From: a virus
Lineage: Duplodnaviria; Caudoviricetes
Length of the DNA: 63,261 nucleotides
Reading direction: 5' to 3' (one strand)
IMG/VR virus record: IMGVR_UViG_3300033067_002102
Span: 1 to 63,261 of that record
How positions within the stretch are numbered: the stretch's first letter is position 1; each line of letters begins with the position of its first letter. The notes under the pieces are model-generated. The model was not told the origin of the DNA. It saw only the letters and a list, made by a program, of their open reading frames with translations, and searched no databases. Positions 6,074-61,814 of this stretch are shown piece by piece. The position numbers were made by a program, and so were the translations under genes.

Positions 6074-7237
6074 TTACGCCACCATATCCATCAGCTTGCC
6101 CGCGCGGGTTTCCAAGTCCGTGCGGTCATCAGCGTTCGCGATGTCACGCGCCACGGCGGTCAAGCCTTGCTCCACGTTCCACAGGGAGAGCGGGTTGCCG
6201 GGGCGGGTCTCAGCGTAATCAAGCGCTTCGGCCACTTGCGTTTGCGTGAACTTCATCCCCGCAAGCTTCGCCTTCACCGCCTTGACGTTGTCGCCGAGCG
6301 TGAGGTCTTGTGCGCGTCGAATCATCTCCACAGTGCTTTGCGTGCCGCTCTCCAAGTAGCGGGTGAGCGCCGGGCGAGCTTCGCGCAAGAAGCGGTCAGG
6401 CGCACCGGCCGTGTGACGGATACGCAACTCCTTGAAGTCCCGCACGCCCCACACGTTGCGGTTGTCGCAAACGTGGTCATAGAGGAACGAGGCGAGCACG
6501 AGCGAACCGTGCATGGTCTCAGAGTTGCTCACGTAGAAGCCGCGGAACAACTCGTGGCCGGGCTCGCCGGGCACTTCGATGGGGTGCGAGTCATCCACGA
6601 GGAACACGAACACGTCACGGTCAGAGGCATAGAGCGTGGTCGCGCGCTTCGGGTCCTTTGCCGCGTAGCTCGCGCTCGGGACCTTCCACTCCGGGCCACA
6701 GTTGCGCATGACGGCGTCCACCACCTCGATGTCCCAGATACGGCCGTAGCTCGGGCTCGTGATGCACCGCGCTTGTGTGGGCGTCTCCGAGCCCGCGAGG
6801 TCGTCACGCGTGATGAGGAGCTTAGCGTCTTGGCGCTCTGCCTTGCTCAAGCTGTAGCTCAGGTTGAGCGCGGCGAGTGGTGCCGGGAGCTTGCGGAGGT
6901 ACGCGGCCGGCACTTGGGCGCGTGAGCAGAGCTGACCAAAGCTCGCGTGGGTGAGGCGAGCGCCCGAGCCGCCCTTATCCTTGTTGAATACCACGACCTC
7001 TTGCTCCATGCCGTCCGCGTCCTTGTCGGCGGCGCGCACGTCGAAACGCTCCAGGGCCGCGCCCGGAAGCTCGCGGCTACGGTTGCGGCGGTCCAAGACC
7101 GAGGCGCGGAGCGTGGCCATGTCCACAAAGCGCTGGTCATCGGGGCGGCTCGCCCACTGGCGCGAGACGGTGCCGAGGACGGCCATTTCTTTCACTTCGC
7201 GGACTTGGACGGGGCTGGTTTCGGTTTGCGTGTTCAT
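6074..7237 (-). CDS. DUF932 family protein
   Basis: VSRQWASRPDDQRF, ITSPSYGRIWD, TLYASDRDVFVFLVD, RGFYVSNSE, VCDNRNVWG. Confidence 0.85.
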   Translation of the reverse strand: MNTQTETSPVQVREVKEMAVLGTVSRQWASRPDDQRFVDMATLRASVLDRRNRSRELPGAALERFDVRAADKDADGMEQEVVVFNKDKGGSGARLTHASFGQLCSRAQVPAAYLRKLPAPLAALNLSYSLSKAERQDAKLLITRDDLAGSETPTQARCITSPSYGRIWDIEVVDAVMRNCGPEWKVPSASYAAKDPKRATTLYASDRDVFVFLVDDSHPIEVPGEPGHELFRGFYVSNSETMHGSLVLASFLYDHVCDNRNVWGVRDFKELRIRHTAGAPDRFLREARPALTRYLESGTQSTVEMIRRAQDLTLGDNVKAVKAKLAGMKFTQTQVAEALDYAETRPGNPLSLWNVEQGLTAVARDIANADDRTDLETRAGKLMDMVA

Positions 7238-7303
7238 CTTCGTATCTCCTTCGGTCGGCGGCTTCCGGGACCATCCCGGACGGCGTCAACCGTTGATAGA
7301 GAC

Positions 7304-7337
7304 ACTTTACACTAACCAAATTAAACCGCAAGCTCTT
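7304..7337 (-). promoter_or_regulatory. Early promoter variant AAGAGC-TTGCGG-N16-TAAAGT
   Basis: Same geometry as repeats A/B; AT-rich upstream tract. Confidence 0.7.
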
Positions 7338-7434
7338 CTATGCTCTTTTTTGAAAAATAATTTAGCTTGCGTTTCTATTCTAGGTGTTCTAGGGGCGGTA
7401 GCCGAAGGGTGCGGGCTCGCGCTTCGAGGGGCGC

Positions 7435-7974
7435 TTAGCGGCCTTGGCCCCAGCGCGCGAGGGCGATGGCGTCCACGACGTTGTGGCGGTAGCTGCGCGC
7501 CGGCCAGACCACGCGCTCATGCTCTTCTTTCGTGAGCCCGAGCGGCGGCGCGAGGAACAAGCGCGACTCCAGCGCATCCGTAGGGACGCCACGCTTCCAC
7601 ACGCTCACGGGCGCGCGGGCGATGTGCGCGCTCGGGAAGCCGTTGCGGATGCCCTCCACGATGCGCCCGATGACGAAGCACAGCTCCAAGAGGTCCGAGG
7701 TAGCGGCATTGCCGCGCGCCTTGCCGTTCTCGGTCTCGGGCATTTCCACAACGAAGCGTAGCTCATCGCTCGGTTGATAGATGGCCCACGGCCCGGGGCG
7801 GCTGATGCCGAGCACAACGGCGCGCATGGTAGCGTCCACGATGTCCGAAGAAAGCGCTTCGGCCGTAGTGGTGCGCGCCCACATCGCATGACGGAGCACG
7901 CTTTGCTGGACGACGGCCACGCCGCATGCGTGCACGCCAGGGTCAATGCCGATGTAAATCGCGCTCGGGCTCAT
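7435..7974 (-). CDS. RuvC-like Holliday junction resolvase
   Basis: IGIDPG, VVEMP, VWK, DAIALA acidic motifs of the RNase H fold. Confidence 0.8.
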   Translation of the reverse strand: MSPSAIYIGIDPGVHACGVAVVQQSVLRHAMWARTTTAEALSSDIVDATMRAVVLGISRPGPWAIYQPSDELRFVVEMPETENGKARGNAATSDLLELCFVIGRIVEGIRNGFPSAHIARAPVSVWKRGVPTDALESRLFLAPPLGLTKEEHERVVWPARSYRHNVVDAIALARWGQGR

Positions 7975-8372
7975 ACGATGAACGTCCCCTTGATTTCGAT
8001 TTGGCGCAGCTCGGGGAGCGTGCGCACCACTTCAAGCTTTATTTCGCCGGGCGGCATGATGAGCAATTCTCCGCGTAGCTCGGCTTCTGCCAAGGTCTTC
8101 TTGATGGACGCTTCTATCGCGGCGATGCGTTCGTCATCCCACTTGAGCGGAGACAAGCCGTAGCTCGGCGCCGGTATCTTTGTGGGGTAGAGCGCTTCGA
8201 GGATGTTGGCCTCCATCTCGACACGCAAGCATTGCAACACGTGGAGCACGTCAACAATGAACCAAAACTCGTCTTGCGTCCACGTGCGCCGAGCGCCGCC
8301 CGGTAGCTCGAATTTGGCGCGAGTTGCCGCGGCTAGACGGCGGTCGCGCACGCGGCGTTGCTTGGCGTTCAT
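7971..8372 (-). CDS. Stand-alone protein resembling the C-terminal domain of the tail sheath
   Basis: Hand alignment to the C-terminus of 38248-39582 (see findings). Confidence 0.6.
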   Translation of the reverse strand: MNAKQRRVRDRRLAAATRAKFELPGGARRTWTQDEFWFIVDVLHVLQCLRVEMEANILEALYPTKIPAPSYGLSPLKWDDERIAAIEASIKKTLAEAELRGELLIMPPGEIKLEVVRTLPELRQIEIKGTFIV

Positions 8373-8551
8373 TCGTGCCCCTCACAGACGCACTTGACCT
8401 CGTGCTCCTCCACGTCGCGCGAGCGATAGGTCTCTTGGACCTTGGCCGCTTCGTGTCGCGCGGCCTTTTCGCAAACGTAGACGCCCACGGTCTCGCGGTC
8501 GCCATGCCCGTAGCCGTCGCCCCAGCTCTCGATGACCACGTAGACCTTCAT
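8369..8551 (-). CDS. Small DUF7336-like protein (MKVYVV...VGVY..EKAA)
   Basis: Motif pattern; ATGA overlaps at both ends. Confidence 0.65.
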   Translation of the reverse strand: MKVYVVIESWGDGYGHGDRETVGVYVCEKAARHEAAKVQETYRSRDVEEHEVKCVCEGHE

Positions 8552-8721
8552 GGCTCGTCCGCGCAGCGCTCGGCCACTTCGTCGCAGAGATAGCCGTCCG
8601 CGATGGCGCAGTGTTGCACGGCCTCCTTGCAATTCTTGGCCGGGCACGCCTCGTAGCAGATGGCCAAGAAGATGAGCGCCGCGACAGAGCCAACGATTTC
8701 AGCCCAAAAATCGTCACGCAT
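8548..8721 (-). CDS. Small membrane-anchored Cys-rich protein
   Basis: Hydrophobic N-terminal helix, 6 Cys. Confidence 0.55.
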   Translation of the reverse strand: MRDDFWAEIVGSVAALIFLAICYEACPAKNCKEAVQHCAIADGYLCDEVAERCADEP

Positions 8722-8998
8722 CGAGCACCTCTGGCGCAAAGCGCGTGCGTAACTTGTTCATGACCTTGAGGAGTGGCGCCTTTTCGTAGCCAGCTCGCGC
8801 GAGCGCGAAGAGCACCTCATCAAGCGTGGCATCCACCGTGCGCTCCACGACGAAACGGCACGTGGCGTCCACCAGCGCGCTCGTGTCGGGCGGCGTCCAG
8901 CCCGTGTCCGTCTGCACATCTTGTCCGCGTTCCACAGCTTCACGAAGCATCTTGCTCACGAACGCATCGCGCTTGAGCGCTTCGGGTGAGCGTCTCAT
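8714..8998 (-). CDS. Hypothetical protein (MRRSPEAL)
   Basis: ATGA overlap. Confidence 0.6.
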   Translation of the reverse strand: MRRSPEALKRDAFVSKMLREAVERGQDVQTDTGWTPPDTSALVDATCRFVVERTVDATLDEVLFALARAGYEKAPLLKVMNKLRTRFAPEVLDA

Positions 8999-9393
8999 AG
9001 ACACCCCACTTGTTCCAGCACTTCGACACGCGCGAGCACGCCGACCGGGCACGCTTGCCGGAGCGCCGTCTCGGCCGCAAGCTGCGCGCCGTCCACAGAG
9101 AAGCTCGTGCGGCGCACGATGACGATGAAGCACGCGCGCAGCTCCACACGCGGCTTCTCTCGCAAGAACCAACGCCGCCACCACGAAGGTTCGTAGCGTG
9201 TGGTCTCGTCACGATAGGCCGCCGTGATGGCTTCGGGCGTAGCCTCCAAGAGCTGCGCGGCAATGTCATGCACGGAGCCGCCGCGGTTGCCTCGCGCCAT
9301 CACGCGTTTGACGCGCGCCCGGAGTTGTTCGTCCGTCTCGTCCGGCTTGCGCTCCACGCCGAGGAGCGTGCCTAAAAAGTCTTCATGGTTCAT
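8995..9393 (-). CDS. Stand-alone baseplate-wedge-like (P2 gpI/DUF2612-type) protein in the early region
   Basis: DFLGTLLGVERKPDETDEQLRARV...GGS and C-terminal ALRQACPVGV motifs. Confidence 0.65.
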   Translation of the reverse strand: MNHEDFLGTLLGVERKPDETDEQLRARVKRVMARGNRGGSVHDIAAQLLEATPEAITAAYRDETTRYEPSWWRRWFLREKPRVELRACFIVIVRRTSFSVDGAQLAAETALRQACPVGVLARVEVLEQVGCL

Positions 9394-9670
9394 CGTTCCA
9401 TCCGTCCTTCACCAGCCGTTGTTTGATTTGGCGCACGCGCTCCTCGCGCCGTTCGTTCTTCTCGGAGAGCTGCCACATGCGGCTAGACGAGCCTCCACAC
9501 GCTGCCCAGAAGCAACACGGGCATCCGCCTTCGCCCACAAACTTCGCTTGAGCGCGGTCTATCGTGTCTTGCGTGCGCTTGATTTGGCGCAGCAAGTGAT
9601 ACAGCTCCAGCCGTAGCCCGCGAAGCTTGCGCTTCGGGCTACAGCCGAGGAAGCAAAGCAGCTTACGCAT
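9383..9670 (-). CDS. Hypothetical basic protein
   Basis: Operon packing. Confidence 0.55.
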   Translation of the reverse strand: MRKLLCFLGCSPKRKLRGLRLELYHLLRQIKRTQDTIDRAQAKFVGEGGCPCCFWAACGGSSSRMWQLSEKNERREERVRQIKQRLVKDGWNDEP

Positions 9671-9917
9671 AACCCCTAGCCTCATCTTGCAACCTCGCCA
9701 CGTTCTCCTTGAGCGCGCCCACTTCCTCTTGCAGCTTCGTCACCGCGCCCTCGGCGTGGACGAGCGAGATATGCAGCACGGCCAACTCTCGGAGCAGCTC
9801 CATCGTGACGTGCCACGGTTGCGGGCCCGGGCCGTGCACAGTGACGAGGCGCTCCTTGAAGGAGTCCATGAACGCCCGAGCGAGCTTTTTCTCTTCTTCG
9901 GTCCATTCGTTAGACAT
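9663..9917 (-). CDS. Hypothetical coiled-coil protein
   Basis: GAGGT RBS; operon packing. Confidence 0.65.
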   Translation of the reverse strand: MSNEWTEEEKKLARAFMDSFKERLVTVHGPGPQPWHVTMELLRELAVLHISLVHAEGAVTKLQEEVGALKENVARLQDEARGYA

Positions 9918-10338
9918 CGGCCACCTCATCGCCGAGCGGCTCCCACAGCCGGCGCATGTAGTCCCAGCGCGCCTTGAGCCACTCGCGCACCTTCGGCTCG
10001 TCCTCGGCTTTGATGTTCTTGACGGTGTGGCTCGCGAACATCCCCTTACGCTGGTGCATCATGAAGATGGTCAGCTCCGGCGTTTCGCGCCCGTTCCACT
10101 CGGGTCCGGCCGGGTCCCAGTCCCAACGGAAGACCATGTTGTAGTCCTCGTCCGAGTCGCCGAATTCCTCGAAGAACGCCGCCCAGCTCTCCCAAGAGTG
10201 CTCGCAATTGTTGCTGTAGTAGTTGGCCGTGGAGCAGTGATACGGGTGCTCCGCGCCCCACAGCTTGCCCGCTTGTCGCCCGGCGAGCCTCCACGCCTTC
10301 TCTTCTTTATCGTTCTTGACTGGTGTCTCGTAGTTCAT
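9910..10338 (-). CDS. Conserved-looking phage hypothetical protein (HPYHC...DYNMVFRWDW...QRKG...LWEPL)
   Basis: AGGAG RBS; aromatic-rich motifs. Confidence 0.75.
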   Translation of the reverse strand: MNYETPVKNDKEEKAWRLAGRQAGKLWGAEHPYHCSTANYYSNNCEHSWESWAAFFEEFGDSDEDYNMVFRWDWDPAGPEWNGRETPELTIFMMHQRKGMFASHTVKNIKAEDEPKVREWLKARWDYMRRLWEPLGDEVADV

Positions 10339-10374
10339 GTCCCCTTCTCCTTTGCCCTGCCAAGGGCGTTTAGC

Positions 10375-10818
10375 TCACTGCGTTTGTTTAGGCGCTAGCG
10401 CTTTTAGCTCTTGCAGGTATTGGCAGAATTCGTCAATACACCGCACCGGAATGTGGATGCTTTCGTGCGCGCCCGTGAGGTCCATGCGCACCTCCACCGC
10501 GGCGTGGTTCGGACTGCCTTCGTCCTTGAGCTGCATAAAGTAGCGCCAGAAGTGCCGGCGCGTGAGCTTGTCCACATCCGCCGCGGCGCTTGCCGCAGCG
10601 CTGGCCAAGTCCTTCGCCACCGCCCGGCGCCGCTCCAGCTCTAGGCGCTGGAGCGGGCCACAGTTATGACCTTGCTTTTGCTCCTCGCTGCAATGGTCGC
10701 ACATCGGAAGCGAGCCCGAGCCGGCGCACCGCTCGCAACGTTCGTACTGAAAGCGGAGCCCGAGCGGTGCCTTGAGCGCGCCCGAGCCCTCGCACACGGG
10801 GCACATCTTACCGCTCAT
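10375..10818 (-). CDS. Protein with DnaJ-type CxxCxGxG zinc-finger repeats
   Basis: CPVCEGSG, CERCAGSG, CDHC. Confidence 0.7.
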   Translation of the reverse strand: MSGKMCPVCEGSGALKAPLGLRFQYERCERCAGSGSLPMCDHCSEEQKQGHNCGPLQRLELERRRAVAKDLASAAASAAADVDKLTRRHFWRYFMQLKDEGSPNHAAVEVRMDLTGAHESIHIPVRCIDEFCQYLQELKALAPKQTQ

Positions 10819-11177
10819 GATGACGCCCCAAGTTGCACAAGCGGCTCCATCGTGCACCCGCGCCCCACGTGGTCGCACGCTCCGCCGTAGGGGTATTCAC
10901 TGCACATGCGCGGGCGCTTTTCGTAGGCCGTACAGTCGCCGGTCTCCTTGTTGAGGTGCCGGCACGTGTAATATTCGCCTTGGTCGCCGTTCGGGTACGT
11001 CTTGGGCTCGCCGAGCGGGATGAGCATGTCATGGATGTAAACCACGTCCGAGAAGACCTTGCGGCCGTTCATGTCTATCGGCAGCCCTCGCAAAGCCGCT
11101 TGCGCATTTGCGGTGATGTCCTTGAGCGTGACCGGCAACGGAAAGCGCCGGCAGCAATGTCCCGTGCACCGGCTCAC
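10815..11177 (-). CDS. YkgJ-family (CxxxCC) cysteine-cluster protein
   Basis: CTGHCC...CRHL...CTAYEKRPRMCSEYP; GTG start. Confidence 0.8.
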   Translation of the reverse strand: MSRCTGHCCRRFPLPVTLKDITANAQAALRGLPIDMNGRKVFSDVVYIHDMLIPLGEPKTYPNGDQGEYYTCRHLNKETGDCTAYEKRPRMCSEYPYGGACDHVGRGCTMEPLVQLGASS

Positions 11178-11635
11178 AGCGGGCTCCTTTCCAGCTCGGC
11201 CATGCGCTCGGGCGTGAGCGGCTCCAGCTCGCGGTGCTGCGCCTCGAAGCATACGAAGGCCGGGAGCTTGAAGTGTGCCGCGTCGTGCTTGATGTGCGCG
11301 CCGTCGCGGAACGGCGTGTCCAGCCGCGCGCAATACTCGCGCGACCCACCGCCGCCCACCTTCGTGGAGCTGAGAGGCGTAGCAATGAGGTGCCCAAGGT
11401 AGTGACGTTGCACGAGCAAGTAGTCACAGATGGCGTTGTCCCCATCGAGCGCGCGCCAGCGCAGCTCCAAGCGCGGGATGGGGAGGCCGTTGTTCTCCGT
11501 GATGCTCACCTTGCGGATGTCGCGCCACCTCCACGAGTCCACATACTTCGCATCGTTTTCGGCGCGGAGCTTCTTCTCCAGCTCGTTTTCAAGCTCATTG
11601 ATGCGCTCGTTGAGCCGTTCTTCTAGCGTTGCCAT
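11174..11635 (-). CDS. Hypothetical protein
   Basis: TAATG coupling with upstream gene. Confidence 0.7.
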   Translation of the reverse strand: MATLEERLNERINELENELEKKLRAENDAKYVDSWRWRDIRKVSITENNGLPIPRLELRWRALDGDNAICDYLLVQRHYLGHLIATPLSSTKVGGGGSREYCARLDTPFRDGAHIKHDAAHFKLPAFVCFEAQHRELEPLTPERMAELERSPL

Positions 11636-11865
11636 TAGCAGCACCCCGCGTCCGCGAAAGCGTGCGTGGATGGCTCCGTGTGAGTCGGCGCGTCGAAGGT
11701 GAAGTCCGGTGCCTTGCTCAAGTCCGGCTTCTCACCGTCGTTCCCGCGCTGCTCCACGCCGAGCTTGCGCGCCGCTTCGAGGTCCGGCGCGATGACGAGC
11801 AACGCGCCTCCGTCGTGCCAGTTGTTCGTGATGTGATTGACGTTGCTCCAGATAAACGCTTTCAT
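11635..11865 (-). CDS. Hypothetical protein (MKAFIWSNV...DAGCC)
   Basis: GGAGG RBS; ATGA overlap. Confidence 0.7.
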   Translation of the reverse strand: MKAFIWSNVNHITNNWHDGGALLVIAPDLEAARKLGVEQRGNDGEKPDLSKAPDFTFDAPTHTEPSTHAFADAGCC

Positions 11866-12185
11866 CGGTACTTCGCCTCCGCCTCTTCTCGGGTGTAGAT
11901 TTTGTGGCCTTCGTCGTCTTCGTTGTAGATGTCCGCGAGCGTCTTGCCGGTCATGCGGAAGTGCTCCAGCTCCTCTACGGTGCACCGGCACTCCGGCTTG
12001 ACCTCGCCCATGAGCCGGGCCTCTTCGTAGCAGCTCGGCGCGAACACCAGCCGTTGTCCTCCGCAACGGCGGCAATAGTTATCGCGGTCACGTATGGCGT
12101 TGAGCCCGTGCCATTGCGGCACCGGTCGCCCGTCTTGCCGCGCTCGCGTCTCCGCGAGCCGTTTGGTGAAAACTTCATCGTTCAT
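11862..12185 (-). CDS. Hypothetical Cys-containing protein
   Basis: GGAGG RBS; ATGA overlap. Confidence 0.65.
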   Translation of the reverse strand: MNDEVFTKRLAETRARQDGRPVPQWHGLNAIRDRDNYCRRCGGQRLVFAPSCYEEARLMGEVKPECRCTVEELEHFRMTGKTLADIYNEDDEGHKIYTREEAEAKYR

Positions 12186-12499
12186 GGTGCCTCCACCGCG
12201 TCGCGGACACGCTTGTATTCGTCGCGCGCCTTGCTGCTACGCGAACATGCGATGTTCACAGCGAGTGGGCATGTGGCCGCGAAATAGACGCCTCGGGCGC
12301 TATCACGCACCGGATTGATGCGCCGGCCGCACGAAACGCAGTGCGTCTCCAGCTCCATCGCCTCCACGTGTAAGCCCGTAGGCATCGGATTGAAGTTGAT
12401 GCGGAAGCGCGGATTCTTGTGCCCGCCATCGCGCGAGTAAAGCTCTATACGCACGAAGGGCCTGAGCTTCGGAAAAAGTGGGTGCTCTGTGAACGTCAC
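12182..12499 (-). CDS. Hypothetical protein (CVSC...C...C)
   Basis: GTGA overlap with ligase stop. Confidence 0.65.
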   Translation of the reverse strand: MTFTEHPLFPKLRPFVRIELYSRDGGHKNPRFRINFNPMPTGLHVEAMELETHCVSCGRRINPVRDSARGVYFAATCPLAVNIACSRSSKARDEYKRVRDAVEAP

Positions 12500-13473
12500 A
12501 TGTCACTCCGGTCTCGGAAGCCGAGAAACACGGGCGAGCGTGGCGCGTCCTTCGCGCCGTGCGGCTGATGTTTGAACTTCACCGTGGCAAGGAGGAGGTC
12601 TTCTTGGATGCGCCAGAAATGGTCCTTCTGCACATCCGTCGTGCCCGAGCCGCACCGAAAGGTGAGCTTGCCCGAGCCCAAGCACTCCTCGCACCACGAC
12701 GTGGAGGAGGTGCGCTTGTCCGCCTTGCACGCGGTGCACGGGCGTTCTTCATTCGGAAATTGGAGGATGAACGCGCCGAGGCGCGAGGTCATGACCAAGC
12801 CCTCCTTCGAGCTGGAGCGTTTGGCGTAGCCGCGCTCGTCCCGCTTTTGCTCGTTCTCGTTCACATAGAGCGGCTCAAAGCCGACAACGATTGCCTCCGC
12901 ATCCTCGAAGCGCTTGACCTTGAGGAGCGCGCCCTCCCGCATCGTGCTCCGGCCCCACTTGTAGAGACCGTTCGGGTCGCGGAGCATGATGCCCTCGTAG
13001 CCCTTCTTGAGCTGGTGTTGCTCGTAGGTGGCTAGCTCCTCCCCGCTCGTGATGAGCACGTGCTCCACGGCGCGCACGAAGTGGCGCTCTTGCAAGCGCT
13101 CAATCGTAGCGATGTCCAGCGCACGGCGATAGCGCTCTTGGAACGGGAGCGCCGGGTCCGTGTGGTGGTCGAAGACGTTGAACGTGATGCCGTCCGTCTC
13201 GCCGTCGTGGCTCATGACGGCGCTCGTCACGTCTTGGAAGGTCTCACCGGCCATCAGCTCGCCGTCTAGGCCCTCCAGCTCGGGGCGCTGGAGAAGCTCG
13301 CGGAGCTTCTTGTTCGGGACCGGCTTGAGCGAGCGCGTGAGCGCGAGCCCATCACGCACCACGCACCGGATGCCGTCCAGCTTCGGCGAAGCTACGAGCG
13401 GGTAACGCAACGTCTCGAAGTCCGGCAACTCGCTACACGCGAGCATTGGCTTGAAGGTTTTCTCTTTGCTCAC
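12496..13473 (-). CDS. lig: ATP-dependent DNA ligase
   Basis: SPKLDGIR (motif I), LDGEL, FNVFD, EGIMLR, LLKVKRFEDAEA, PRSPVF. Confidence 0.95.
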   Translation of the reverse strand: MSKEKTFKPMLACSELPDFETLRYPLVASPKLDGIRCVVRDGLALTRSLKPVPNKKLRELLQRPELEGLDGELMAGETFQDVTSAVMSHDGETDGITFNVFDHHTDPALPFQERYRRALDIATIERLQERHFVRAVEHVLITSGEELATYEQHQLKKGYEGIMLRDPNGLYKWGRSTMREGALLKVKRFEDAEAIVVGFEPLYVNENEQKRDERGYAKRSSSKEGLVMTSRLGAFILQFPNEERPCTACKADKRTSSTSWCEECLGSGKLTFRCGSGTTDVQKDHFWRIQEDLLLATVKFKHQPHGAKDAPRSPVFLGFRDRSDM

Positions 13474-37682: not shown

Positions 37683-38248
37683 CGAGCACCGCAATGGACT
37701 GGCGCGCCATCGAGGCGGCGTTCAAAGGGCTCGTCAAGGGCGCCATCGGGCTTGAGTGCGTGTGGGGGAACAGCAACGGCGTTCAACCTGACCGCTCCTA
37801 CGTCATGCTTACGTGGCTCGGCTTTGACAATATTTCCGATAGCGGTTCTTATGATTCTTTCGACGAAGCGCGCAACGTCATCTCGCGCAACTACTACGCC
37901 AGCCGCACGGCGCAAGTAGATGTGCAAGCGATTGCAAAGAGCAATCGAGCCGGTGACAACGCGCTCGCGTTCGTGGACGCGCTCATGGTCGCCTTCGACA
38001 TGGAAGCGCTCCCGAAGAGATGGCTTGCGCCGGTAGGCATAGCCGTGTCAGATTTCACCGCAGCGCGACTTCTCGACGCAGTCGAGGACGGTGGCCGCAT
38101 CGTCAGCCGCGCAGCATTCACCCTAAAACTCAACCTGGCCGCTAACGTGGCCGGGGCAGAGACGCCGACCACCATCGAATCGGTGGCGCTCACCGGCAAT
38201 GTTTCTGGCCTAACCGGCGCGTTGAGCGTCGCACGAGAGGACACCTAA
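37679..38248 (+). CDS. Tail terminator protein
   Basis: Position directly before sheath; QPDRSYV motif. Confidence 0.7.
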   Translation: MTSTAMDWRAIEAAFKGLVKGAIGLECVWGNSNGVQPDRSYVMLTWLGFDNISDSGSYDSFDEARNVISRNYYASRTAQVDVQAIAKSNRAGDNALAFVDALMVAFDMEALPKRWLAPVGIAVSDFTAARLLDAVEDGGRIVSRAAFTLKLNLAANVAGAETPTTIESVALTGNVSGLTGALSVAREDT

Positions 38249-39582
38249 TGGCTGGCTTGGACGACATCATCAACCTGACCATCACCATCGAATCCAGCTC
38301 CATCACGCGGGCGGGCTTCGGCACGCCACTCGTGGCGGACTACAACACGCGCTATTCCGGCGCGCTTGTGCGGAGCTACAGCAAGCCGAGCGCGATGGTG
38401 GCGGACGGCTTCGTCGTGTCGGACCCGGCTTACGTCGCGGCGAATGCGATGATGAGCCAGAACCCGCGCCCGCGCACCGTGAAAATCGGACGCCGCACGC
38501 ACGGCCCGGCGCAGCGCTTCAACTTCACGCCGCTCACCGGCACCGCGCGCACCTACGCGTTCGGCATCGCCATCACAGGCGGCGCCAAGCAATCGGTGAG
38601 CTATGCCGCGGCCTCCGCGGACTCGGCGAACACCATCGTCAACGCGCTCACGGCGCAAGTGGCCGCACTCTCGGGCTACGGTGGCGCCGGCCTCACGGCG
38701 AGCAACCAAACGGGCGTGCTCCGCATCCAAGGCCCGGCAACGGGTCCGAAGTTCGTGGTCACGGACGCGGACATCTCGCAATGGACGAGCATCCTCGATG
38801 ATACGCAAGACGCGTCACTCGCCACGGACCTCGATGCCATCGAGCTGGAGGACTCGGACTGGTACGGCTTCATCAGCACGTCCAAGGGAACGAACGAGCT
38901 GAACGCCGCGGCCGGCTGGGTCGCGTCGCGCCGCAAGTTCTTCATCGGCGGCACGCAAAACAGTGACATCGCCAGCGCGGTCACGAATGACATCGCCTCT
39001 ACGCTCAAGGCCGCGAGCCAAGTGCGCACGGCCTTGTTCGTGAACGACGGCGCGCACAACCAAGGCGACGCGGCGGCGCTCGGCAAGTGGCTTCCGTACA
39101 CGCCGGGCTCCGAGACCATGAAGTTCAAGACCATCGTCGGCGTGTTGCCGACGAAGTGGACGGACACCCAGCTCGGCTACATCAAGGCCAAGAACGCCAA
39201 CTACTACATCACGGTGGCCGGCACCTCGATGTTTGGCGAGGGCAAGACGTGCCAGGGCGAATTCATGGACACGATTCGTTTCGTGGACTGGCTCTACGCG
39301 AACATCCAAGAGGAAATCTTCGGCATCCTCAACCGTGAAATCAAGGTGCCATTCACGGACGATGGCGTGGCGCAAATCGAAAGCGGTATCCGCGCGGTGC
39401 TCAAGCGCGGTGTGAACGCGGGCGGCTTGGCGAAGAACCCGGCTTTCTCGGTCACGGTGCCGCTCGTGGCGGACGTGAGCACGCTCGACAAGAGCGCGCG
39501 CCGCCTCCCGGACATCACCTTTAACGCAACCTTGGCCGGCGCGATTCACGAGCTGGACATCTCTGGAACCGTGTCCGTCTAA
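38248..39582 (+). CDS. Contractile tail sheath protein (DUF3383-like)
   Basis: AGFGTPL, MKFKTIVGV, GEFMDTIRFVDWL, KVPFTDDG, AGAIH. Confidence 0.93.
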   Translation: MAGLDDIINLTITIESSSITRAGFGTPLVADYNTRYSGALVRSYSKPSAMVADGFVVSDPAYVAANAMMSQNPRPRTVKIGRRTHGPAQRFNFTPLTGTARTYAFGIAITGGAKQSVSYAAASADSANTIVNALTAQVAALSGYGGAGLTASNQTGVLRIQGPATGPKFVVTDADISQWTSILDDTQDASLATDLDAIELEDSDWYGFISTSKGTNELNAAAGWVASRRKFFIGGTQNSDIASAVTNDIASTLKAASQVRTALFVNDGAHNQGDAAALGKWLPYTPGSETMKFKTIVGVLPTKWTDTQLGYIKAKNANYYITVAGTSMFGEGKTCQGEFMDTIRFVDWLYANIQEEIFGILNREIKVPFTDDGVAQIESGIRAVLKRGVNAGGLAKNPAFSVTVPLVADVSTLDKSARRLPDITFNATLAGAIHELDISGTVSV

Positions 39583-39606: not shown

Positions 39607-40044
39607 ATGGGTTTGAAAGTTTACGACCCCGCGCAAGTGGTGGTCATTTTCGGCGGGGCGAAAATCGACGGCATGGCGCCGTCCAGCCGAGTCAAAATCA
39701 CCTTCCCCGAGCTTTACACGAAGGTGGTGGGCATTGACGGCGAGGTGGGCCGCGGCAAGAAGAACGACCGCACGGCCTCCGTCACCATTGAGTTGCTCCA
39801 GACGAGCTTGAGCAACGATGTGTTGATGGCCTTTTTCGTGGCGGACGACGCGAGCCCCATCGGCGCGATTCTCCCGCTCATGATTAAGAACCTCAACGGG
39901 ACCACGCTCTTCGTCACGCCTGGCGCGTGGATTAAGAAGCTCCCCGAGGTCACCTACGCGGCGGAGGTCGGGACCAACACGTGGGAAATCGACTGCTCCG
40001 ACGTGGAGAGCTTCGTGGGCGGACAAGTCAGCGTCACGGGCTAA
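39607..40044 (+). CDS. Tail tube protein (DUF3277-like)
   Basis: YDPAQVVV, VGIDGE, TIELLQTS.SN, WEI. Confidence 0.9.
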   Translation: MGLKVYDPAQVVVIFGGAKIDGMAPSSRVKITFPELYTKVVGIDGEVGRGKKNDRTASVTIELLQTSLSNDVLMAFFVADDASPIGAILPLMIKNLNGTTLFVTPGAWIKKLPEVTYAAEVGTNTWEIDCSDVESFVGGQVSVTG

Positions 40045-43061: not shown

Positions 43062-43436
43062 ATGTTGCTCGTGACGACGTACCCGCAAGAGGAAAACTAC
43101 AACATGCAAGTGAGCCTTGAGGGCGTCACTTACGTGTTGTCGTTTCTGTGGAACGCGCGGTGTGAGGCGTTCTTCATTAGCATGTCCAGCGTGGACGGCA
43201 CGAAGCTCGTCTCCGGCGTGAAGCTCTGCGCGAGCACGCCGCTTTTTGCAAATGTGCGCCTCGGGCCGCCCGGCGTGCTCTTCGTTTACGACTCCTCGGG
43301 CCAAGACAAAGACCCGGGCAAGCTGGAGCTGGGCAAGGACAAGCGGTGCCAGCTCTACTATCTCACGGCCGCGGAGGTCGCGCTCCTCCAGCAAGGCTAT
43401 GACGTGTTCGCGGGGGCGGTAGATGCCTCAACGTGA
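43062..43436 (+). CDS. Baseplate plug-like protein
   Basis: VSLEGVTY.LSF.WNAR...LYY. Confidence 0.7.
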   Translation: MLLVTTYPQEENYNMQVSLEGVTYVLSFLWNARCEAFFISMSSVDGTKLVSGVKLCASTPLFANVRLGPPGVLFVYDSSGQDKDPGKLELGKDKRCQLYYLTAAEVALLQQGYDVFAGAVDAST

Positions 43437-44268
43437 CCTCTTTGACCGCGTGTGCATCGTCAACGTTGACGGCTCGGAGCTGATAAACTTCGACGTTGAC
43501 GGCGAGGTCGTGCTCACGACCGAGACCACGCCGAACAAAGCCAAAATCAAAATTTACAACTTGGACAAAGACCTCCAAGCGGCGGTGCGCAAGAAGGACG
43601 CGCGCGTGGCTCTCACGCTCGGCTACCAAAACGCGGACTTCGCGGAGGTGTTCTTAGGGGACATCCGCTACGCGCCGAGCGGGCTCGTGGGCTCGGATTG
43701 GGTGACGGTGCTCGAAGCGGGCGACGCGGAGCGCGCGATTCAACAGAGCCAAGCGGCCATCACGTGGGCCAAGGGTAAGGACGTGTCGAAGGTCGTGGAG
43801 GAGCTGCTCCAGACCTTCGAGGACGTGGATATGGGGGACTTTCAGCAGACCTTCAAGTCCAAGGTGATGGAGCAATTCCCGAACGGCGGCGCGTTCAGCG
43901 GTAACAGCATGCGCGTGCTCGATGAGATTTTGCGCGGCTACGGCTGGACCGTGAGCGTCCAGAAACGCAAGTTCCAATTCATTCAGCTCAGCACCGGCAA
44001 GAACACGGAGATAGTGCAATCGCTCGACCCAAGCACCGGGCTTATTGACGAGCCGGACGTGGGCGAGCCGGACAAGAAGACCGGCAAGGCGAAGGCGAAA
44101 ATTACATCCTTGCTCATGCCCAAGATTATCCCGGGGTGCCAAGTGCACGTGACCGGCACGACGGACGGGCTCCGCGATGGTGACTACACGGTGCAAAAGG
44201 TCACGCATCAATTCTCCAACTGGCAACCGAAACCGTTCTATACGGTGATGGAGGCCACGACCACATGA
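43423..44268 (+). CDS. Baseplate hub protein
   Basis: NKAKIKIYNL, LTLGY, VFLGDI, TGLIDEP, LLMPKI.PG. Confidence 0.85.
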   Translation: MPQRDLFDRVCIVNVDGSELINFDVDGEVVLTTETTPNKAKIKIYNLDKDLQAAVRKKDARVALTLGYQNADFAEVFLGDIRYAPSGLVGSDWVTVLEAGDAERAIQQSQAAITWAKGKDVSKVVEELLQTFEDVDMGDFQQTFKSKVMEQFPNGGAFSGNSMRVLDEILRGYGWTVSVQKRKFQFIQLSTGKNTEIVQSLDPSTGLIDEPDVGEPDKKTGKAKAKITSLLMPKIIPGCQVHVTGTTDGLRDGDYTVQKVTHQFSNWQPKPFYTVMEATTT

Positions 44269-45154: not shown

Positions 45155-45657
45155 GCTTTCGTCCCACTGAATTTGCCGCAGACCTCGCCAACATCTCGGG
45201 CGCTGATGAAGCCGCGACCATCGCGTCATGGCGCGCAGCGTTCTACACCTACGAGCGGCAGTGCATCACGGACAACGGCGTCTCTATCACCGCGAGTGGC
45301 GCGGCACACTCGACCGCGCTTGATGCTTTCTCGGCGGCAATGGTCGGCTTGTCCGACCTCAGTACCGGGGGCGCGCCAAAGATTCAAGCGGCCATCATCG
45401 CGTTTTGGGACTACATCGCGAACCCTAGTAACATCGGTTTTTATTTCGCTGGCGGTTCTAACATGGTGAAGCCGGCCGGTCTCACGGGCATTCAAGCAGC
45501 CATTGAGGCGACCTATCCGGGAAACCTTGCGATTGATGTGAACTTGCCGATTGCCACGCAACGCTCCATGGCATGCACGAACGTCGCAAACGCCATTCAC
45601 GGTTGCCACTCGGGCGGGACGGTGCGCATCGGCGGCGTGGATAGGGTAATTTCATGA
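45151..45657 (+). CDS. Hypothetical baseplate-associated protein
   Basis: Overlapping starts/stops within the baseplate operon. Confidence 0.65.
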   Translation: MSFRPTEFAADLANISGADEAATIASWRAAFYTYERQCITDNGVSITASGAAHSTALDAFSAAMVGLSDLSTGGAPKIQAAIIAFWDYIANPSNIGFYFAGGSNMVKPAGLTGIQAAIEATYPGNLAIDVNLPIATQRSMACTNVANAIHGCHSGGTVRIGGVDRVIS

Positions 45658-46037
45658 GTGACATCAAGCTGGACAACACGCACGACATTGACGTGACTAA
45701 CTCAGAGGTCACGCTCGTCTACGACGAAGAGGCCATCACCCAAGAAATCAAAATCGGGATGCGCTTCTTTCAGGGCGAGTGGTTCTTGGACCAACGCGTG
45801 GGCATCCCCTACTTTCAGCGCATCTTCACCGGAGAGAAAACGGATGACATGGCCATCGTTCAGGCCACGTACCGGCGTGCGCTGTACAGCATCCCCGGGG
45901 TGCTCAACGTGGATTACGTCAACGCGAGCTATGACGATGATGCGTCACTTCGTCGCGTGAACGTGGAGTGGCGCTGCCAGGTTTCGGGCGAGCCGGAGAC
46001 ATTCATTGAGGGCGTGGAAGCGCTCGTGATACCGTAA
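45654..46037 (+). CDS. Baseplate wedge / sheath initiator (gp25-like)
   Basis: FQGEWFLD..GIPY, IPGV..V. Confidence 0.85.
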   Translation: MSDIKLDNTHDIDVTNSEVTLVYDEEAITQEIKIGMRFFQGEWFLDQRVGIPYFQRIFTGEKTDDMAIVQATYRRALYSIPGVLNVDYVNASYDDDASLRRVNVEWRCQVSGEPETFIEGVEALVIP

Positions 46038-46059: not shown

Positions 46060-47211
46060 ATGCCAGGGCTCACGACCTCGGGCTTTGAAATCAAGGACTT
46101 GGATACCATCCTCACGGAGTGTGAGGCCGAGGAGAAGAACCTCTTGGGTCAATCGCTCAACGTGCGACCCACCTCCGTGCCGGGCGTCTTCAACGGCGTT
46201 TTCTCGGCGAAGCTCTCCGAGATGTGGGAGGTTACGGAGGAGGTCTACTCGGCGTGGAACCCGGACACTGCCACGGGTGTGTCCCTGGACCAACTTTGCC
46301 AAATCACGGGCGTCATCCGACTTGCGGCAACGCAAAGCACGGTGACACTTTCGCTCACCGGCACGCCCGGCACGCCCATCCCGACGGGGCGCCGAGTCAA
46401 AAACGCTAGCACAAATACCTATTGGACGAACCCGCTCTCCGGCGTCATTGGTGGCGGCAGCTCTGTGCTCATCGGCTTCCAAGCTGAGGCGACGGGTCCG
46501 AGCATCGGCGTTGCAGGGACGCTTACCATCATTGACACGCCGGTCTCCGGCTGGAGCGCGGTCACGAACCCGGCCGATGCGACGCTTGGCCGTGACGAAG
46601 AGACGGACGCGGACCTCCGCGTGCGTCGCGCCGAGTTGCTCACGGCCGCGGGTAAGGGCACCGTGGACTCCATCCGCGCGGACGTGCGCGACGTGGACGA
46701 GGTCACGGACGTGGAGGTGTACGAAAACACCACGCTCGTGACGGACGTGGATGGGCTCCCGGGCAAGGCGTTTGAGGTGCTTGTCTCGGGCGGAGACAAT
46801 GACGAAATCGCTCAAGCGATTTGGAACAGCAAGCCGGCCGGCATCAGCGCGCACGGCTCGGCGAGTGGCATGGCCTATGACGCGCTCAGCGCGCAACGCC
46901 CCATGTTCTTCACGCGCCCGACGCTCAAGAACACCTATCTGGCGGTCACCGCGACCACGGGCGTAGGGTTCAGCGGGCTCACCGCAGACATCGCGCTTTC
47001 GCTCGTGAGCTTCGGCAATGTTGCTTACGGCATCGGCGATGATGTTGTCCGCCAGCGCTTGCGCGGCGCCACCTTCGTTACGGGCGTGGTCGATAACCCG
47101 GCCTTTGCGCTCGATTACTACGCCTCGCCCACGGCCACCTCCAACTTGCCGGTGGGCTCGCGTGAGCGCGCGGTCTTCGACACCTCGCGCGTATCGGTGA
47201 CGTTGCTATGA
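46060..47211 (+). CDS. Baseplate J-like protein
   Basis: ATGVSLD, VTNP..ATLGRDEETDADLR.R, KPAGI. Confidence 0.92.
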   Translation: MPGLTTSGFEIKDLDTILTECEAEEKNLLGQSLNVRPTSVPGVFNGVFSAKLSEMWEVTEEVYSAWNPDTATGVSLDQLCQITGVIRLAATQSTVTLSLTGTPGTPIPTGRRVKNASTNTYWTNPLSGVIGGGSSVLIGFQAEATGPSIGVAGTLTIIDTPVSGWSAVTNPADATLGRDEETDADLRVRRAELLTAAGKGTVDSIRADVRDVDEVTDVEVYENTTLVTDVDGLPGKAFEVLVSGGDNDEIAQAIWNSKPAGISAHGSASGMAYDALSAQRPMFFTRPTLKNTYLAVTATTGVGFSGLTADIALSLVSFGNVAYGIGDDVVRQRLRGATFVTGVVDNPAFALDYYASPTATSNLPVGSRERAVFDTSRVSVTLL

Positions 47212-48695
47212 GCAAGAACCTTGAGCACAACACACAGCACCGCCAGCAAGCGCGAGACCTCGTCATCGAGCAATTCAAGCGTTCGCAGCGGTTCAACGAT
47301 TGGCTTGGGGTCTACGTAGACCAAATCCAAGACATCGAAGACGCGCTGTGGGACCTCTACACGAAGCGCGGCGTGGACACGGCTGAGGGTGCCCAGCTCG
47401 ATGTGCTCGGCGTCATTGTCGGACAACCGCGCAACGGGCTCGATGACACGGACTATCGCACGCGCATCAAGGTCCGCATCCGTCTTAATCGCGCTAGCGG
47501 AATTGCGGACGACATCTACGACGTGTTTGGGCTCATGCTCGGCAACCAAATCGGTGCGGTCTCGCTCCAAGAGGCGTACCCAGCCGGGCTTATCGTTCAG
47601 ATGAACGAGTACGTGGACACGTCACCCGCTGTGCTCGCGGAGATTTTGCGCGAAGCGCGCGGCGCCGGCATTGACACGAGTCTCGTATGGCTTCCGAGCG
47701 CGGACGGCATCTTCGAGTGTAGCTCAGACGCGGCACCCGAAGTGGATAGCCCGGACGAAGGTTTCGCCACGGAGACGTTCAAGGCTTCCGTCTACAACCA
47801 TGGGAGCAGCGCACCGGGCGAATACACCTCCATTGCGCATGCTCCGGCGTTGAATGTGACGATTGCGGTGGGCGCGCAAATCACCACCTCCTCGCGCATC
47901 ATGCGCTCCACGGACGGCGGCCAGACATGGACCGCTATCACGCCGCCGACCGGCGCTTACTGGGTTACGGTGGCGTGGGCGCAAGCTCACAACATGTTCT
48001 ATGCCTTCGGGCACGATGGCACCGTTATCCGCTCGACCACGGGCACTTCGTGGTCTGTGGTCGCGACGCTGACTTACGGCTACACGTCCATGGCGTGCTC
48101 GGATTCGGGCTTGCTTGTAGCGGTCTATGGGGCAAACCGCTCTGCCACATCCACGAACGGGACCTCATGGACAGAGAACAACACGGGGTTGAACCTCAAC
48201 CAAGTAGCCTATTCTTCGTTGGAGAATCGCTTTGTGGCCGCGGGCGCGCCTGGGCTCTATTACTCCACCAACGGCGTGTCATGGACGCAGGGCTATGCGG
48301 GGCCTGGCTCGGGCCAAGGCTACGTGGCGTGGAATGCCAAGCTCCAAATCTTCTTCGCGTTCCTCACCGCCGCAACGGGCTCGTTTTACAGCTCGACTGA
48401 TGGTATCAACTGGGACATCGTTGTGGACGCTACGTCCGAGATTTGGGTAGCCATCGCCGCGTGCGGCAACAAGTTCTTGGCTCTCACCTATAACGATGCA
48501 AGCACAACTATTGCCGTCTTCGACGGGGCGAACCTCAGCACGTTCTACGATGCCTCGTTGCAATACGGCTACAGCTCCATGTGCACGATGGGCTTGGAGC
48601 AAGACAAAGCAATCTCACCCACGCTGGGAAACCAGATAGTTGCGGTGTTCGCCGTCCCTTCGGGCGGTCAACTCGCTGGCGTTTTGGAGGCTTAA
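47208..48695 (+). CDS. DUF2612-like baseplate wedge protein carrying a BNR/Asp-box beta-propeller
   Basis: DTAEGAQLDVLGVIVGQPR..DDTDYR; five Asp-box-like ST(D/N/T)G..W repeats. Confidence 0.8.
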   Translation: MSKNLEHNTQHRQQARDLVIEQFKRSQRFNDWLGVYVDQIQDIEDALWDLYTKRGVDTAEGAQLDVLGVIVGQPRNGLDDTDYRTRIKVRIRLNRASGIADDIYDVFGLMLGNQIGAVSLQEAYPAGLIVQMNEYVDTSPAVLAEILREARGAGIDTSLVWLPSADGIFECSSDAAPEVDSPDEGFATETFKASVYNHGSSAPGEYTSIAHAPALNVTIAVGAQITTSSRIMRSTDGGQTWTAITPPTGAYWVTVAWAQAHNMFYAFGHDGTVIRSTTGTSWSVVATLTYGYTSMACSDSGLLVAVYGANRSATSTNGTSWTENNTGLNLNQVAYSSLENRFVAAGAPGLYYSTNGVSWTQGYAGPGSGQGYVAWNAKLQIFFAFLTAATGSFYSSTDGINWDIVVDATSEIWVAIAACGNKFLALTYNDASTTIAVFDGANLSTFYDASLQYGYSSMCTMGLEQDKAISPTLGNQIVAVFAVPSGGQLAGVLEA

Positions 48696-57594: not shown

Positions 57595-57920
57595 CTACAG
57601 CGGCGCTCGATGGTGCGCGAGACGGCTTGCAGCTCGTCTACGATATGCGCTTTCCATTGCATCGAGCGCTCCACTTCGCTCGCGCACCATTCAAGCTCAC
57701 CGTTCATCACCGCAAGCTTGCGCTCAAGACGGGCGCGCTCTTCTCGCTCGGCGGTAAGCTCGCCTCCGAGGATGATGGTAACGGACACGAGAAGAAGTAG
57801 CCCACAGACGCAAGCGCTTCTGAGAATGCGCTTGAGGAGCGCCTTTCGCGTATCCACTGGCGGGGGCTGAGGCGGCTCCCCGGACCCTTCAAGGCTAAGC
57901 TCTTCAAGCATGAGCACCAT
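57564..57920 (-). CDS. Possible TM plus coiled-coil protein
   Basis: GGAGG RBS; hydrophobic helix; overlaps the GT 3' end in another frame. Confidence 0.45.
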   Translation of the reverse strand: MVLMLEELSLEGSGEPPQPPPVDTRKALLKRILRSACVCGLLLLVSVTIILGGELTAEREERARLERKLAVMNGELEWCASEVERSMQWKAHIVDELQAVSRTIERRCSYFPLTKDTP

Positions 57921-59767: not shown

Positions 59768-60387
59768 GATGCGCTCCAGTGATGGGCGCACACCACGCCC
59801 GGTTGCTTCATACGCGCGGCCTTCTCTTCATCGCTGATGCCGCGTTCTTGCGGTGACCATGGATAAAAAGCGTGCTTCGGCATGACGATGAGGCCCGTGT
59901 CTTGATGTGAGCGCACGAGCTGAGTCAGGATGGTGGTGCCGTTGAACACCGTATCGTGGAAGGTGTCCGTGAACTTCGTGGCGCGGTACGTATCGAGCGC
60001 GCGCTTGATGAACGCGTGGCCCTTCGGCGCGATGAGCACGGCGCCGCACATGAACGTTTCATCCTCGTAGCCGATGACGAAGTCTCCTTGCGCCACCAGC
60101 TCGTCAAGGAAGTGCTCGTTTACAAGCTCCACGTCCGTGTCCAGATACACGCCGCCCAGCTCATAGAGCAGCGCAAGGCGCGCAACGTCACTCGCGCCGG
60201 CCCAATGCTCGGCGCGATAGGCATCGTTGAAATAGGGGATTTCGTAGAGCCACGGCACGACGGAGGACAGACGCGCGCGTGACCACGTGGTCACGTTGTC
60301 GCGCTCCGGCCACGTGGCCATGCAATGAAGCGCTAGCGCGTTTGGCTCCTTCGGGCCAAACCAAATTGAATGAATGGGGTAGGTCAC
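59755..60387 (-). CDS. GT32-like DXD glycosyltransferase
   Basis: IHSIWFG, ASDVARL..LYELGGVYLDTDVE, GTTILT, FYP, HHWSASW. Confidence 0.92.
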   Translation of the reverse strand: MTYPIHSIWFGPKEPNALALHCMATWPERDNVTTWSRARLSSVVPWLYEIPYFNDAYRAEHWAGASDVARLALLYELGGVYLDTDVELVNEHFLDELVAQGDFVIGYEDETFMCGAVLIAPKGHAFIKRALDTYRATKFTDTFHDTVFNGTTILTQLVRSHQDTGLIVMPKHAFYPWSPQERGISDEEKAARMKQPGVVCAHHWSASWVK

Positions 60388-60806
60388 TAGCGTGGTTCTC
60401 CCGGTCTTTGCACAGCGGTTGCACAGCGGTCATGAAGCCGCGCAAAGATGATAGATGTGATGCTCTTGCCCATCTCTTCGGCGATGAGCTTGGCCAGCTC
60501 GCTCGGGTCGGCCTGGAGCGCCCGCAAACGTTGTTCGGTCAACTCCACGCGGATGAAGTGCGTGGAGCTGCCCACTTTGAACGTGGCGCGCAGCTCGTAG
60601 CCGAAGCCCACGGGCGAGCGTTCGGAGATGATGAACGGGACCTCAATGCCGTCACCCGCGAGCACGGCGGACATGAGAATCTTGCGGAGGAGCTTCTCCT
60701 CCATCTCTTGCAAGATGCGCATGCTCTCGTCCGTGGGCGCGCGATGCTCGTGCACCGTCTTCGTGACGTGCGAAGGGCCGCTCTGTACGGTGATGCGGTC
60801 GAACAT
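60387..60806 (-). CDS. Hypothetical protein (HEHRAPTDES motif)
   Basis: GGAGG RBS; TGATG coupling. Confidence 0.7.
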   Translation of the reverse strand: MFDRITVQSGPSHVTKTVHEHRAPTDESMRILQEMEEKLLRKILMSAVLAGDGIEVPFIISERSPVGFGYELRATFKVGSSTHFIRVELTEQRLRALQADPSELAKLIAEEMGKSITSIIFARLHDRCATAVQRPGEPR

Positions 60807-61144
60807 CAGTAGTCCTCCCCGCCCGTGTCCGAGCCCCGGAGCACGTCCAAGATGCGCTTCGGCAGTGTGCGCAAGTACCACCAGCGCCATCGCCACTTCG
60901 CGGTCCGCTCGCGCTTCTCACGCTCGGCCACTTCCTGCTTGCAGCACTCCGCGACGTTGCCCCAGCCCTCCCACGCCGTGGGCGCGGTCTTCGGCGCCGT
61001 CCCACGCGGGTATTCGAGACCACAGCGGTGCTCGTTACACCACCATCGGTCAGCGAAGATATTGAAGCTTGCGGAAATACCGCGCTTCTCTTTTGGGTCC
61101 AAACCGGGCGAAAACGCCCAGCGACACGGCGCGAGCTTACGCAT
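60806..61144 (-). CDS. Hypothetical Cys/Trp-rich protein
   Basis: Fills the gap with coupled start/stop. Confidence 0.5.
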   Translation of the reverse strand: MRKLAPCRWAFSPGLDPKEKRGISASFNIFADRWWCNEHRCGLEYPRGTAPKTAPTAWEGWGNVAECCKQEVAEREKRERTAKWRWRWWYLRTLPKRILDVLRGSDTGGEDY

Positions 61145-61802: not shown

Positions 61803-61814
61803 GGTCTAGGTTTC

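Follow-up and report, generated by a model that had tools for sequence, protein, structure and literature searches.

A probable free-standing, truncated relative of BW3 baseplate wedge proteins in the replication arm of a myovirus-like phage

Baseplate wedge proteins of contractile tails are familiar as virion components whose genes belong to the tail module. What, then, might a single domain of this type, freed from its usual surroundings and moved to the replication arm, be doing in a phage whose tail module is complete without it? The question is raised by ORF 8995-9393 of the window, by which we mean the whole stretch of DNA analysed here, a 63,261-bp IMG/VR virus record with 62.6% G+C that is myovirus-like and has two gene arms. 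An earlier note, drawn from the sequence alone, had described the ORF as a stand-alone look-alike of a baseplate wedge protein without the N-terminal helical bundle, tightly packed among its neighbours and lying about 0.6 kb from a look-alike of the tail sheath, and had suggested that the two form a maintained structural-mimic module rather than debris. The results below indicate that ORF 8995-9393 is very probably a functional gene, and that it encodes a diverged and truncated paralogue of BW3, the third wedge protein in contractile tails (P2 gpI / Mu gp48 / DUF2612 type). The role of this product can be proposed with far less confidence.

A conserved gene away from the tail module

The components of the tail module, from the sheath to the wedge subunits BW1, BW2 and BW3, are all present in the plus arm of the window (Table 1). 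A distance of 37 kb separates ORF 8995-9393 from this module, and the two are on opposite strands. The ORF is located between the genes for the ligase and the RuvC-like resolvase, in the same orientation as these genes of DNA metabolism. No integrase was seen among the part of the window genes that was scanned, and the phage looks virulent, with replication genes of its own. A scan of positions 7000-13000 for promoters and terminators gave no signal above shuffled sequences. The glycosyltransferase-like and methyltransferase-like minus-strand genes at the right end of the window (57707-63261) resemble a continuation of the left minus arm (1-150), and the record therefore seems circularly permuted. 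The window is listed as 58% complete, and a 61-kb relative as 100%.

Table 1. Positions of ORF 8995-9393, its segments and other features of the window
Feature	Position	Strand	Remarks
Plus arm	about 26.9-57.6 kb	+	complete contractile-tail module
Sheath	38248-39582	+	
Tube	39607-40044	+	
Chaperone and tape measure			in the tail module of the plus arm
Hub	43423-44268	+	
gp25-like wedge subunit (BW1)	45654-46037	+	
J-like wedge protein (BW2)	46060-47211	+	putatively a more distant paralogue of the domain of ORF 8995-9393
Full-length BW3 (I-like) of the phage	47208-48695	+	495 aa; DUF2612 N-terminal domain and C-terminal extension
Residues 65-160 of BW3	47400-47687	+	counterpart of ORF 8995-9393 by hhalign
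Minus arm		-	replication and DNA metabolism: primase/helicase, exonuclease, helicase, DNA polymerase, thymidylate synthase, ligase, RuvC-like resolvase
ATP-dependent ligase	12496-13473	-	
Upstream ORF	9383-9685	-	100 aa, basic, pI 10.0; overlaps the start of ORF 8995-9393 by 11 nt
ORF 8995-9393	8995-9393	-	probable stand-alone BW3 (gpI/gp48-type) wedge domain; 132 aa, ATG start
Helix motif, residues 17-27	9313-9345	-	PDETDEQLRAR, (E/D)(T/S)D..LR.R; common to J-like and I-like proteins
Beta1-beta2 hairpin extension, residues 60-84	9142-9216	-	W71 W72 R73 R74 W75; specific to family A1
P(A/V)G turn and last strand, residues 115-127	9013-9051	-	counterpart of the wedge (K)PAG-strand end
Downstream ORF	8714-8998	-	94 aa, no family match; 63.5% identical in the relative
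RuvC-like resolvase	7435-7974	-	

The codon composition and the divergence of ORF 8995-9393 both point to a real gene under purifying selection. Its G+C content by codon position (0.71/0.48/0.77) is coding-like. Between the ORF and its 94%-identical copy in the 61-kb relative, 38 codons differ, 30 of them synonymously and 8 non-synonymously. When 35 genes of the arm were queried against the relative, 28 were matched, and ORF 8995-9393 ranked third among them in protein identity (93.9%), above the DNA ligase (86.5%) and above its immediate neighbours (63.5% and 88%); the J-like protein stands at 96%. The freed wedge domain is under strong purifying selection, better conserved than the ligase of the same phage. 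Its stop codon overlaps the start of ORF 8714-8998 in an ATGA that is retained in the relative, and its own start is overlapped by ORF 9383-9685, so that the tight packing described in the earlier note is indeed intact. A fast-evolving ORF is in this way coupled by the ATGA to a constrained one.

Decay of a wedge gene after duplication would explain why the ORF spans only part of BW3, but such an origin is extremely unlikely. Besides the excess of synonymous changes, the high rank of the gene within its arm and the conserved coupling of start and stop, constant length speaks against it: the six known sequences of the family, designated A1, all measure 131-142 aa, with identities from 94% down to 33% and 24 invariant columns. 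We consequently rule out debris, and the maintenance of the gene proposed earlier is borne out.

The A1 members were found by a HMMER scan and a word-based search. Six matches at E <= 1e-3 were returned by the scan of 1.84 billion cluster representatives: P0002, P0004 and P0005 are full-length relatives, and P0007 shares a short motif only, while P0006 and P0008, long and repetitive proteins matching a W-rich segment only, were dropped as spurious. A full-length A1 copy occurs in one of 25 records of phages with related J-like genes, and this is the near-twin of the window. No A1 match was found in 14 of the 15 related records with a completeness of 90% or more, although homologous J/I wedge genes are present there, which indicates that this baseplate type does not need A1; the gene appears to be accessory, not core, to it. 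Metagenome contigs yielded A1 in none of 428 candidate stretches, and P0005 gave no further homologue in genome contigs or viral contigs. The A1 profile detected no longer or fused forms among longer proteins at E <= 10, which is weak evidence. By these comparisons, A1 appears to be a very rare family of free-standing, truncated BW3 domains. The genomic context of the A1 gene is described from two near-identical genomes.

Relationship to BW3 wedge proteins

The comparison set for BW3 consisted of the N-terminal domains of genes following a J-like gene in 80 related loci. An I-like match follows the J-like gene in 70 of these, and filtering at 80% identity left 40 non-redundant sequences, with that of the window included. 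Aligned with these 40 domains by hhalign, the six A1 members gave a probability of 93.1% and P 3.1e-7, residues 5-124 of the ORF pairing with residues 65-160 of the BW3 of the phage, against P 0.083 and 0.18 for reversed-sequence controls. The signal persists (P 2e-6) in the four members left after removal of the window and its near-twin, and the accepted paralogy of I-like and J-like proteins scores no better (P 6.9e-7). The strings quoted in the earlier note as parallels between the ORF and 47208-48695 are present in both sequences, and the alignment places them in the same register. Identity to the BW3 of the phage itself is 20% in this alignment. Pairwise BLASTP of the ORF gives E 0.059 against the I-like and E 8.9 against the J-like protein of the phage, and the I-like comparison, taken alone, does not go beyond chance.

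The most distant A1 member, P0005, provides a second line of evidence. In a 2.3-Gb phage collection it matches one gene, that of the 'baseplate protein' gp132 of Lactobacillus phage Lb338-1, which is located directly after a J-like gene; residues 3-130 of P0005 align with residues 57-178 of gp132 at 28% identity (tblastn E 3e-3, pairwise E 1e-9). ORF 8995-9393 itself, searched by tblastn against the phage collection, returned only sub-significant baseplate or structural matches (E 0.08-0.3). When the I-like and J-like HMMs were run over the window's 910 six-frame ORFs, each ranked ORF 8995-9393 third, behind both true wedge genes. The only matches of the A1 profile in other phage records are weak, one inside a J-like gene and the other 235 nt after one (records G003 and G019), and in two viral contigs (L004 and L005) a near-identical RKP.ETDEQLR.R string lies within J-like genes that follow gp25-like genes. 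The A1 profile aligned more weakly to J-like proteins, by hhalign over residues 17-65 of the ORF with P 3.7e-4 and a probability of 36%.

Family profiles detect the relationship faintly. Pfam Baseplate_J (PF04865) matches the ORF at E 0.054, with 13.2 bits against a cut-off of 21.1 and over positions 113-150 of a profile of 255, and weakly matches three of the six A1 members. PHROG baseplate families reach the ORF at E 0.0027-0.034 and match four of the six members weakly, while PF11041, PF09684 and PF10076 gave no match at E <= 1 for any of the six. A sequence-profile search of the PDB returned residues 61-99 of the phi812 baseplate protein TmpF at E 0.15; no paper on TmpF was found in the literature search. 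Neither PADLOC nor NCBIfam matched the ORF or its neighbours. In the protein-language-model search (Atlas), the nearest clusters carry PF27728, Tail_P2_I, Phage_Wedge1 and Mu_Gp48, with scores of 0.89-0.93. The single sequences of Mu gp48 and gp47 gave no signal with A1 (P 0.025 and 0.22), and Mu gp48 is not detected even by the DUF2612-type alignment (P 0.11).

An AF2 model of the ORF built on the six-sequence alignment has a mean pLDDT of 80.4 and a predicted H-H-H-E-E-H-E topology, in which three helices precede a long beta-hairpin tipped by a short helix, and a further helix and a last strand follow. Foldseek returned one PDB match at E <= 1e-3, a 179-residue baseplate chain of the Streptomyces coelicolor contractile injection system (CIS; E 4e-4, 20% identity). 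According to the part of PMC12237407 that describes it, the wedge of this system comprises two Cis11 and one Cis12, and the chain is, judging by its size, probably Cis12. Among viral models Foldseek gave 12 matches at E <= 1e-3, of which 5 are baseplate, tail or structural proteins, 1 is a BIG2-domain protein and 6 are unnamed. A Foldseek-independent scan of 48,161 chains placed a diffocin 'triplex' chain at rank 1 (Z 8.2, rmsd 2.2 Å over 67 residues), and chains of contractile baseplates make up 11 of the top 50 entries. The best superpositions are obtained with PDB chains of J-like size (Mu 9ki1 residues 195-277, Z 7.8-8.1, rmsd 2.2-2.3 Å; diffocin, Z 8.2-8.5). The C-terminal domains of MamM/CDF transporters tie with these at Z about 8, at an rmsd of 3.3-3.8 Å versus 2.1-2.3 Å for the baseplate chains. 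The alpha/beta fold is common and the CDF domains tie, and the fold alone is therefore not diagnostic of wedge kinship. The earlier note had held that a lack of any baseplate-fold match would refute its reading; chains from CIS and diffocin baseplates are found at the top, and the reading withstands this check.

The resemblance might in principle be fortuitous, the ORF being a small ferredoxin-like protein unrelated to wedge proteins, in which an ETD..LR.R-like string occurs by coincidence. The weak pairwise BLASTP values, the Pfam scores below threshold and the generic folds that tie in Z are what such a protein would give. We nevertheless regard this as very improbable, and chance is largely ruled out by the gap between the hhalign score and its reversed controls, by the match of P0005 to Lb338-1 gp132 over its full length and by the third rank among all frames under two independent wedge HMMs; the Atlas neighbours, moreover, are BW3 families. 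The hhalign and P0005 results and the agreement of the Atlas and fold searches uphold the description of the ORF as a stand-alone relative of wedge proteins.

Parts of the wedge protein kept, lost and gained

Of BW3, ORF 8995-9393 keeps only the part that comes after the first helix. This part consists of the helix with the (E/D)TD..LR.R motif and of a small alpha/beta domain that ends in P-A/V-G and a strand. The same order of helix motif, alpha/beta domain, P-A/V-G turn and strand characterizes BW3 proteins at large (Phage_Wedge1, Tail_P2_I, Phage_Mu_Gp48; Cis12; the small subunit of the pyocin and diffocin 'triplex'). In these proteins the helix motif takes the general form G..R..(E/D)(T/S)D..(L/Y)R.R, and the closing turn the form (K)P-A-G. 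At the end of the domain, hhalign pairs LRQACPVGV of the ORF with LREARGAGI of the BW3 of the phage, and P116 is invariant in A1. With BW2 proteins (Mu gp47, P2 gpJ; PF04865) the ORF shares the helix motif, nearly identical to the RKP.ETDEQLR.R of the J-like genes in the two viral contigs, but this likeness is confined to one internal domain: the multi-domain J architecture is absent and Baseplate_J stays below its gathering score.

Unlike BW3, the ORF has no N-terminal core-bundle helix. Its alignment with BW3 starts at residue 65 of the latter, and an in-frame stop lies five codons upstream of its ATG, so that no extension is possible. A split gene or frameshift, with upstream ORF 9383-9685 supplying the missing BW3 helix, was considered and rejected, as that ORF does not resemble the helix (P 0.32). 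The absence of the N-terminal helical bundle stated in the earlier note is thus confirmed. In Mu, as described in the wedge section of PMC11915804, BW3 and two BW2 conformers contribute their N-terminal regions to a core bundle of three helices, which is inserted between subunits of the tube initiator; the remainder of the BW2/BW3 heterotrimer makes up the trifurcation unit. Absent from the ORF as well is any C-terminal extension for binding a fibre or receptor: the ORF ends at the last strand of the domain, while the BW3 of the phage runs for another 330 residues. Around residues 206-330, that protein weakly resembles BNR/Asp-box, DUF6242 and F510_1955 glycosylhydrolase-like families (E 3e-10, well short of the family cut-off), and the extension may be a fused receptor- or sugar-binding domain. 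In addition, the ORF differs from Mu gp48 in its short strand 2-helix loop, where loop 133-155 of gp48, which docks the fibre (PMC11915804, in the portion that covers this loop), seems to be placed; the single gp48 sequence gives no signal against A1, and this mapping is therefore by eye only.

The gain is a 25-residue hairpin extension carrying WWRRW, invariant in A1 and facing a gap in the BW3 of the phage in the hhalign alignment; in the AF2 model, the block of residues 71-80 within this region has a pLDDT of 90. Other residues invariant in A1 only are H42, D43, R95 and E127. At the site of the hairpin, Lb338-1 gp132 has a partly similar long loop that begins EPW, which hints that ORF 8995-9393 did not arise by recent duplication of the BW3 of this phage, where such a loop is absent. 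P0007, a 128-aa metagenome protein that is otherwise unrelated, contains the P(S/T)WWRR.FLREKPR motif of the hairpin tip twice, and a stretch resembling a strand comes after each copy, as though the hairpin could act as an independent module. Whatever its role, A1 marks out the minimal autonomous unit of the BW3 fold.

Possible roles and neighbouring genes

The retained domain makes protein contacts in wedges, and the gene is accessory, constrained and located away from the virion genes; on these grounds, three readings of its function were ranked. Our leading proposal, put forward tentatively, is that the product would stay out of the virion and, by contacts of the wedge type, modulate or block the assembly of wedges. 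It would bind a BW3 partner, most plausibly the J-like BW2, without entering the core bundle or carrying a fibre, and binding would delay, guide or block the assembly of wedges, either of the phage's own baseplate or of that of a co-infecting competitor. Judged by sequence, a mimic of the phage's BW3 would be expected to resemble that protein more closely than at 20% identity, and a phage that encodes a blocker of this kind would need a means of sparing its own tails. A complex prediction with two J-like chains and ORF 8995-9393 scored 0.09, the mark being 0.32, and weighs neither for nor against the proposal. The product might alternatively act in phage-phage competition as a dominant-negative cap, occupying the BW3 site on the BW2 of co-infecting relatives or of host tailocins/CIS; we consider this improbable. 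Complexes deprived of the bundle helix and of the fibre-bearing part would then be dead ends, and the diverged wedge pair of the phage itself would be spared.

The wedge fold may instead have been recruited for a job unconnected with tails, for instance as a binder of nucleic acid, of a host protein or of the membrane, a possibility that we hold about as likely as the leading proposal and likewise open to serious doubt. Under this exaptation the wedge motif may be kept for folding only, as a support of the fold, and the WWRRW hairpin with H42-D43, R95 and E127 may form a new, unrelated site. The position of the gene among those of DNA metabolism, between ligase and resolvase, agrees with such a change of role, as do the low identity to the phage's own BW3, the generic nature of the fold, the occurrence of the Trp/Arg-rich hairpin motif twice in the unrelated P0007, and the fact that the strongest invariants are A1-specific and not wedge-typical. 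Against it, the protein is near neutral (pI 7.75) and matches no DNA-binding, enzymatic or defence family, a helix-turn-helix PHROG at E 0.095 being at chance level, and its N-terminal wedge motif is nearly letter-identical to that of true J-like proteins, beyond the apparent needs of the fold. An accessory virion part or assembly helper, that is, a peripheral subunit or a chaperone docking via a trifurcation-type domain and encoded outside the tail module, is rather unlikely. Homology to a structural protein would be expected of it, and the conservation between the two genomes is similar to that of structural genes such as the J-like one; the resolvase-type genes nearby may, as in T4 and T7, be expressed late enough to overlap with assembly. 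The opposite strand and the distance from the tail genes count against a helper of this kind, as does the lack of an A1 match in nearly all the near-complete related records that do have J/I wedge genes. Nor does the ORF have the helix by which BW3 is held in the wedge (PMC11915804, in its account of Mu).

The proposed modulation of wedge assembly has a hypothetical parallel, in logic only: Tab and Tai are non-virion proteins of mobile elements (prophage, PICI, satellite) that block the tail assembly of invading phages, as summarized in the abstracts of PMC10884400 and PMC11364771, and Tab acts on the tape measure protein, according to a section heading. The abstracts of these papers describe no copy of a tail protein, whereas ORF 8995-9393 would be a copy of a wedge domain; and unlike these defence genes of prophages and satellites, it resides in a seemingly virulent phage with its own replication genes. 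PADLOC, whose 2023 library may predate Tab and Tai, gave no match. The literature search for a baseplate paralogue, decoy or mimic, or for DUF2612, found nothing relevant. If the product does act on the assembly of wedges, part of a structural protein would serve as regulator or weapon, a mode that the abstracts on Tab and Tai do not describe. With another role, it would exemplify the recruitment of a tail domain to a new function. From canonical BW3 proteins it is set apart, beyond the truncation, by its genomic position, since it does not adjoin the J-like gene and the canonical slot is filled by 47208-48695, and by the extra WWRRW hairpin and scores under every Pfam threshold.

The sheath look-alike of the earlier note did not withstand comparison. 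Taken as an ORF about 0.6 kb away, it was sought on each side, in ORFs 7971-8372 and 9910-10338. The former, on the minus strand and probably the one the note had in mind, shares with the sheath of the phage only a 17-residue BLASTP match, at E 0.017 for that single comparison; Pfam, PHROG, PADLOC, NCBIfam and Atlas yielded no match. With 90.7% identity to its counterpart in the relative, it is a real gene. ORF 9910-10338, on the minus strand and 142 aa long, showed no similarity to the sheath when this was looked for, and strongly matches phrog_7880 (E 1.5e-43), a family of unknown function. Two tail-protein fragments in one cluster are thus not supported. Of the suggested structural-mimic module, the maintained wedge relative stands and the second fragment falls away; the idea therefore rests on one gene and keeps its conjectural standing.

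Two further minus-strand ORFs of the neighbourhood carry faint family signals. ORF 8369-8647 is DUF7336-like (E 4.8e-5), and ORF 10375-10878 contains repeats resembling the DnaJ-type CXXCXGXG zinc finger, at E 0.0012 and below the cut-off.
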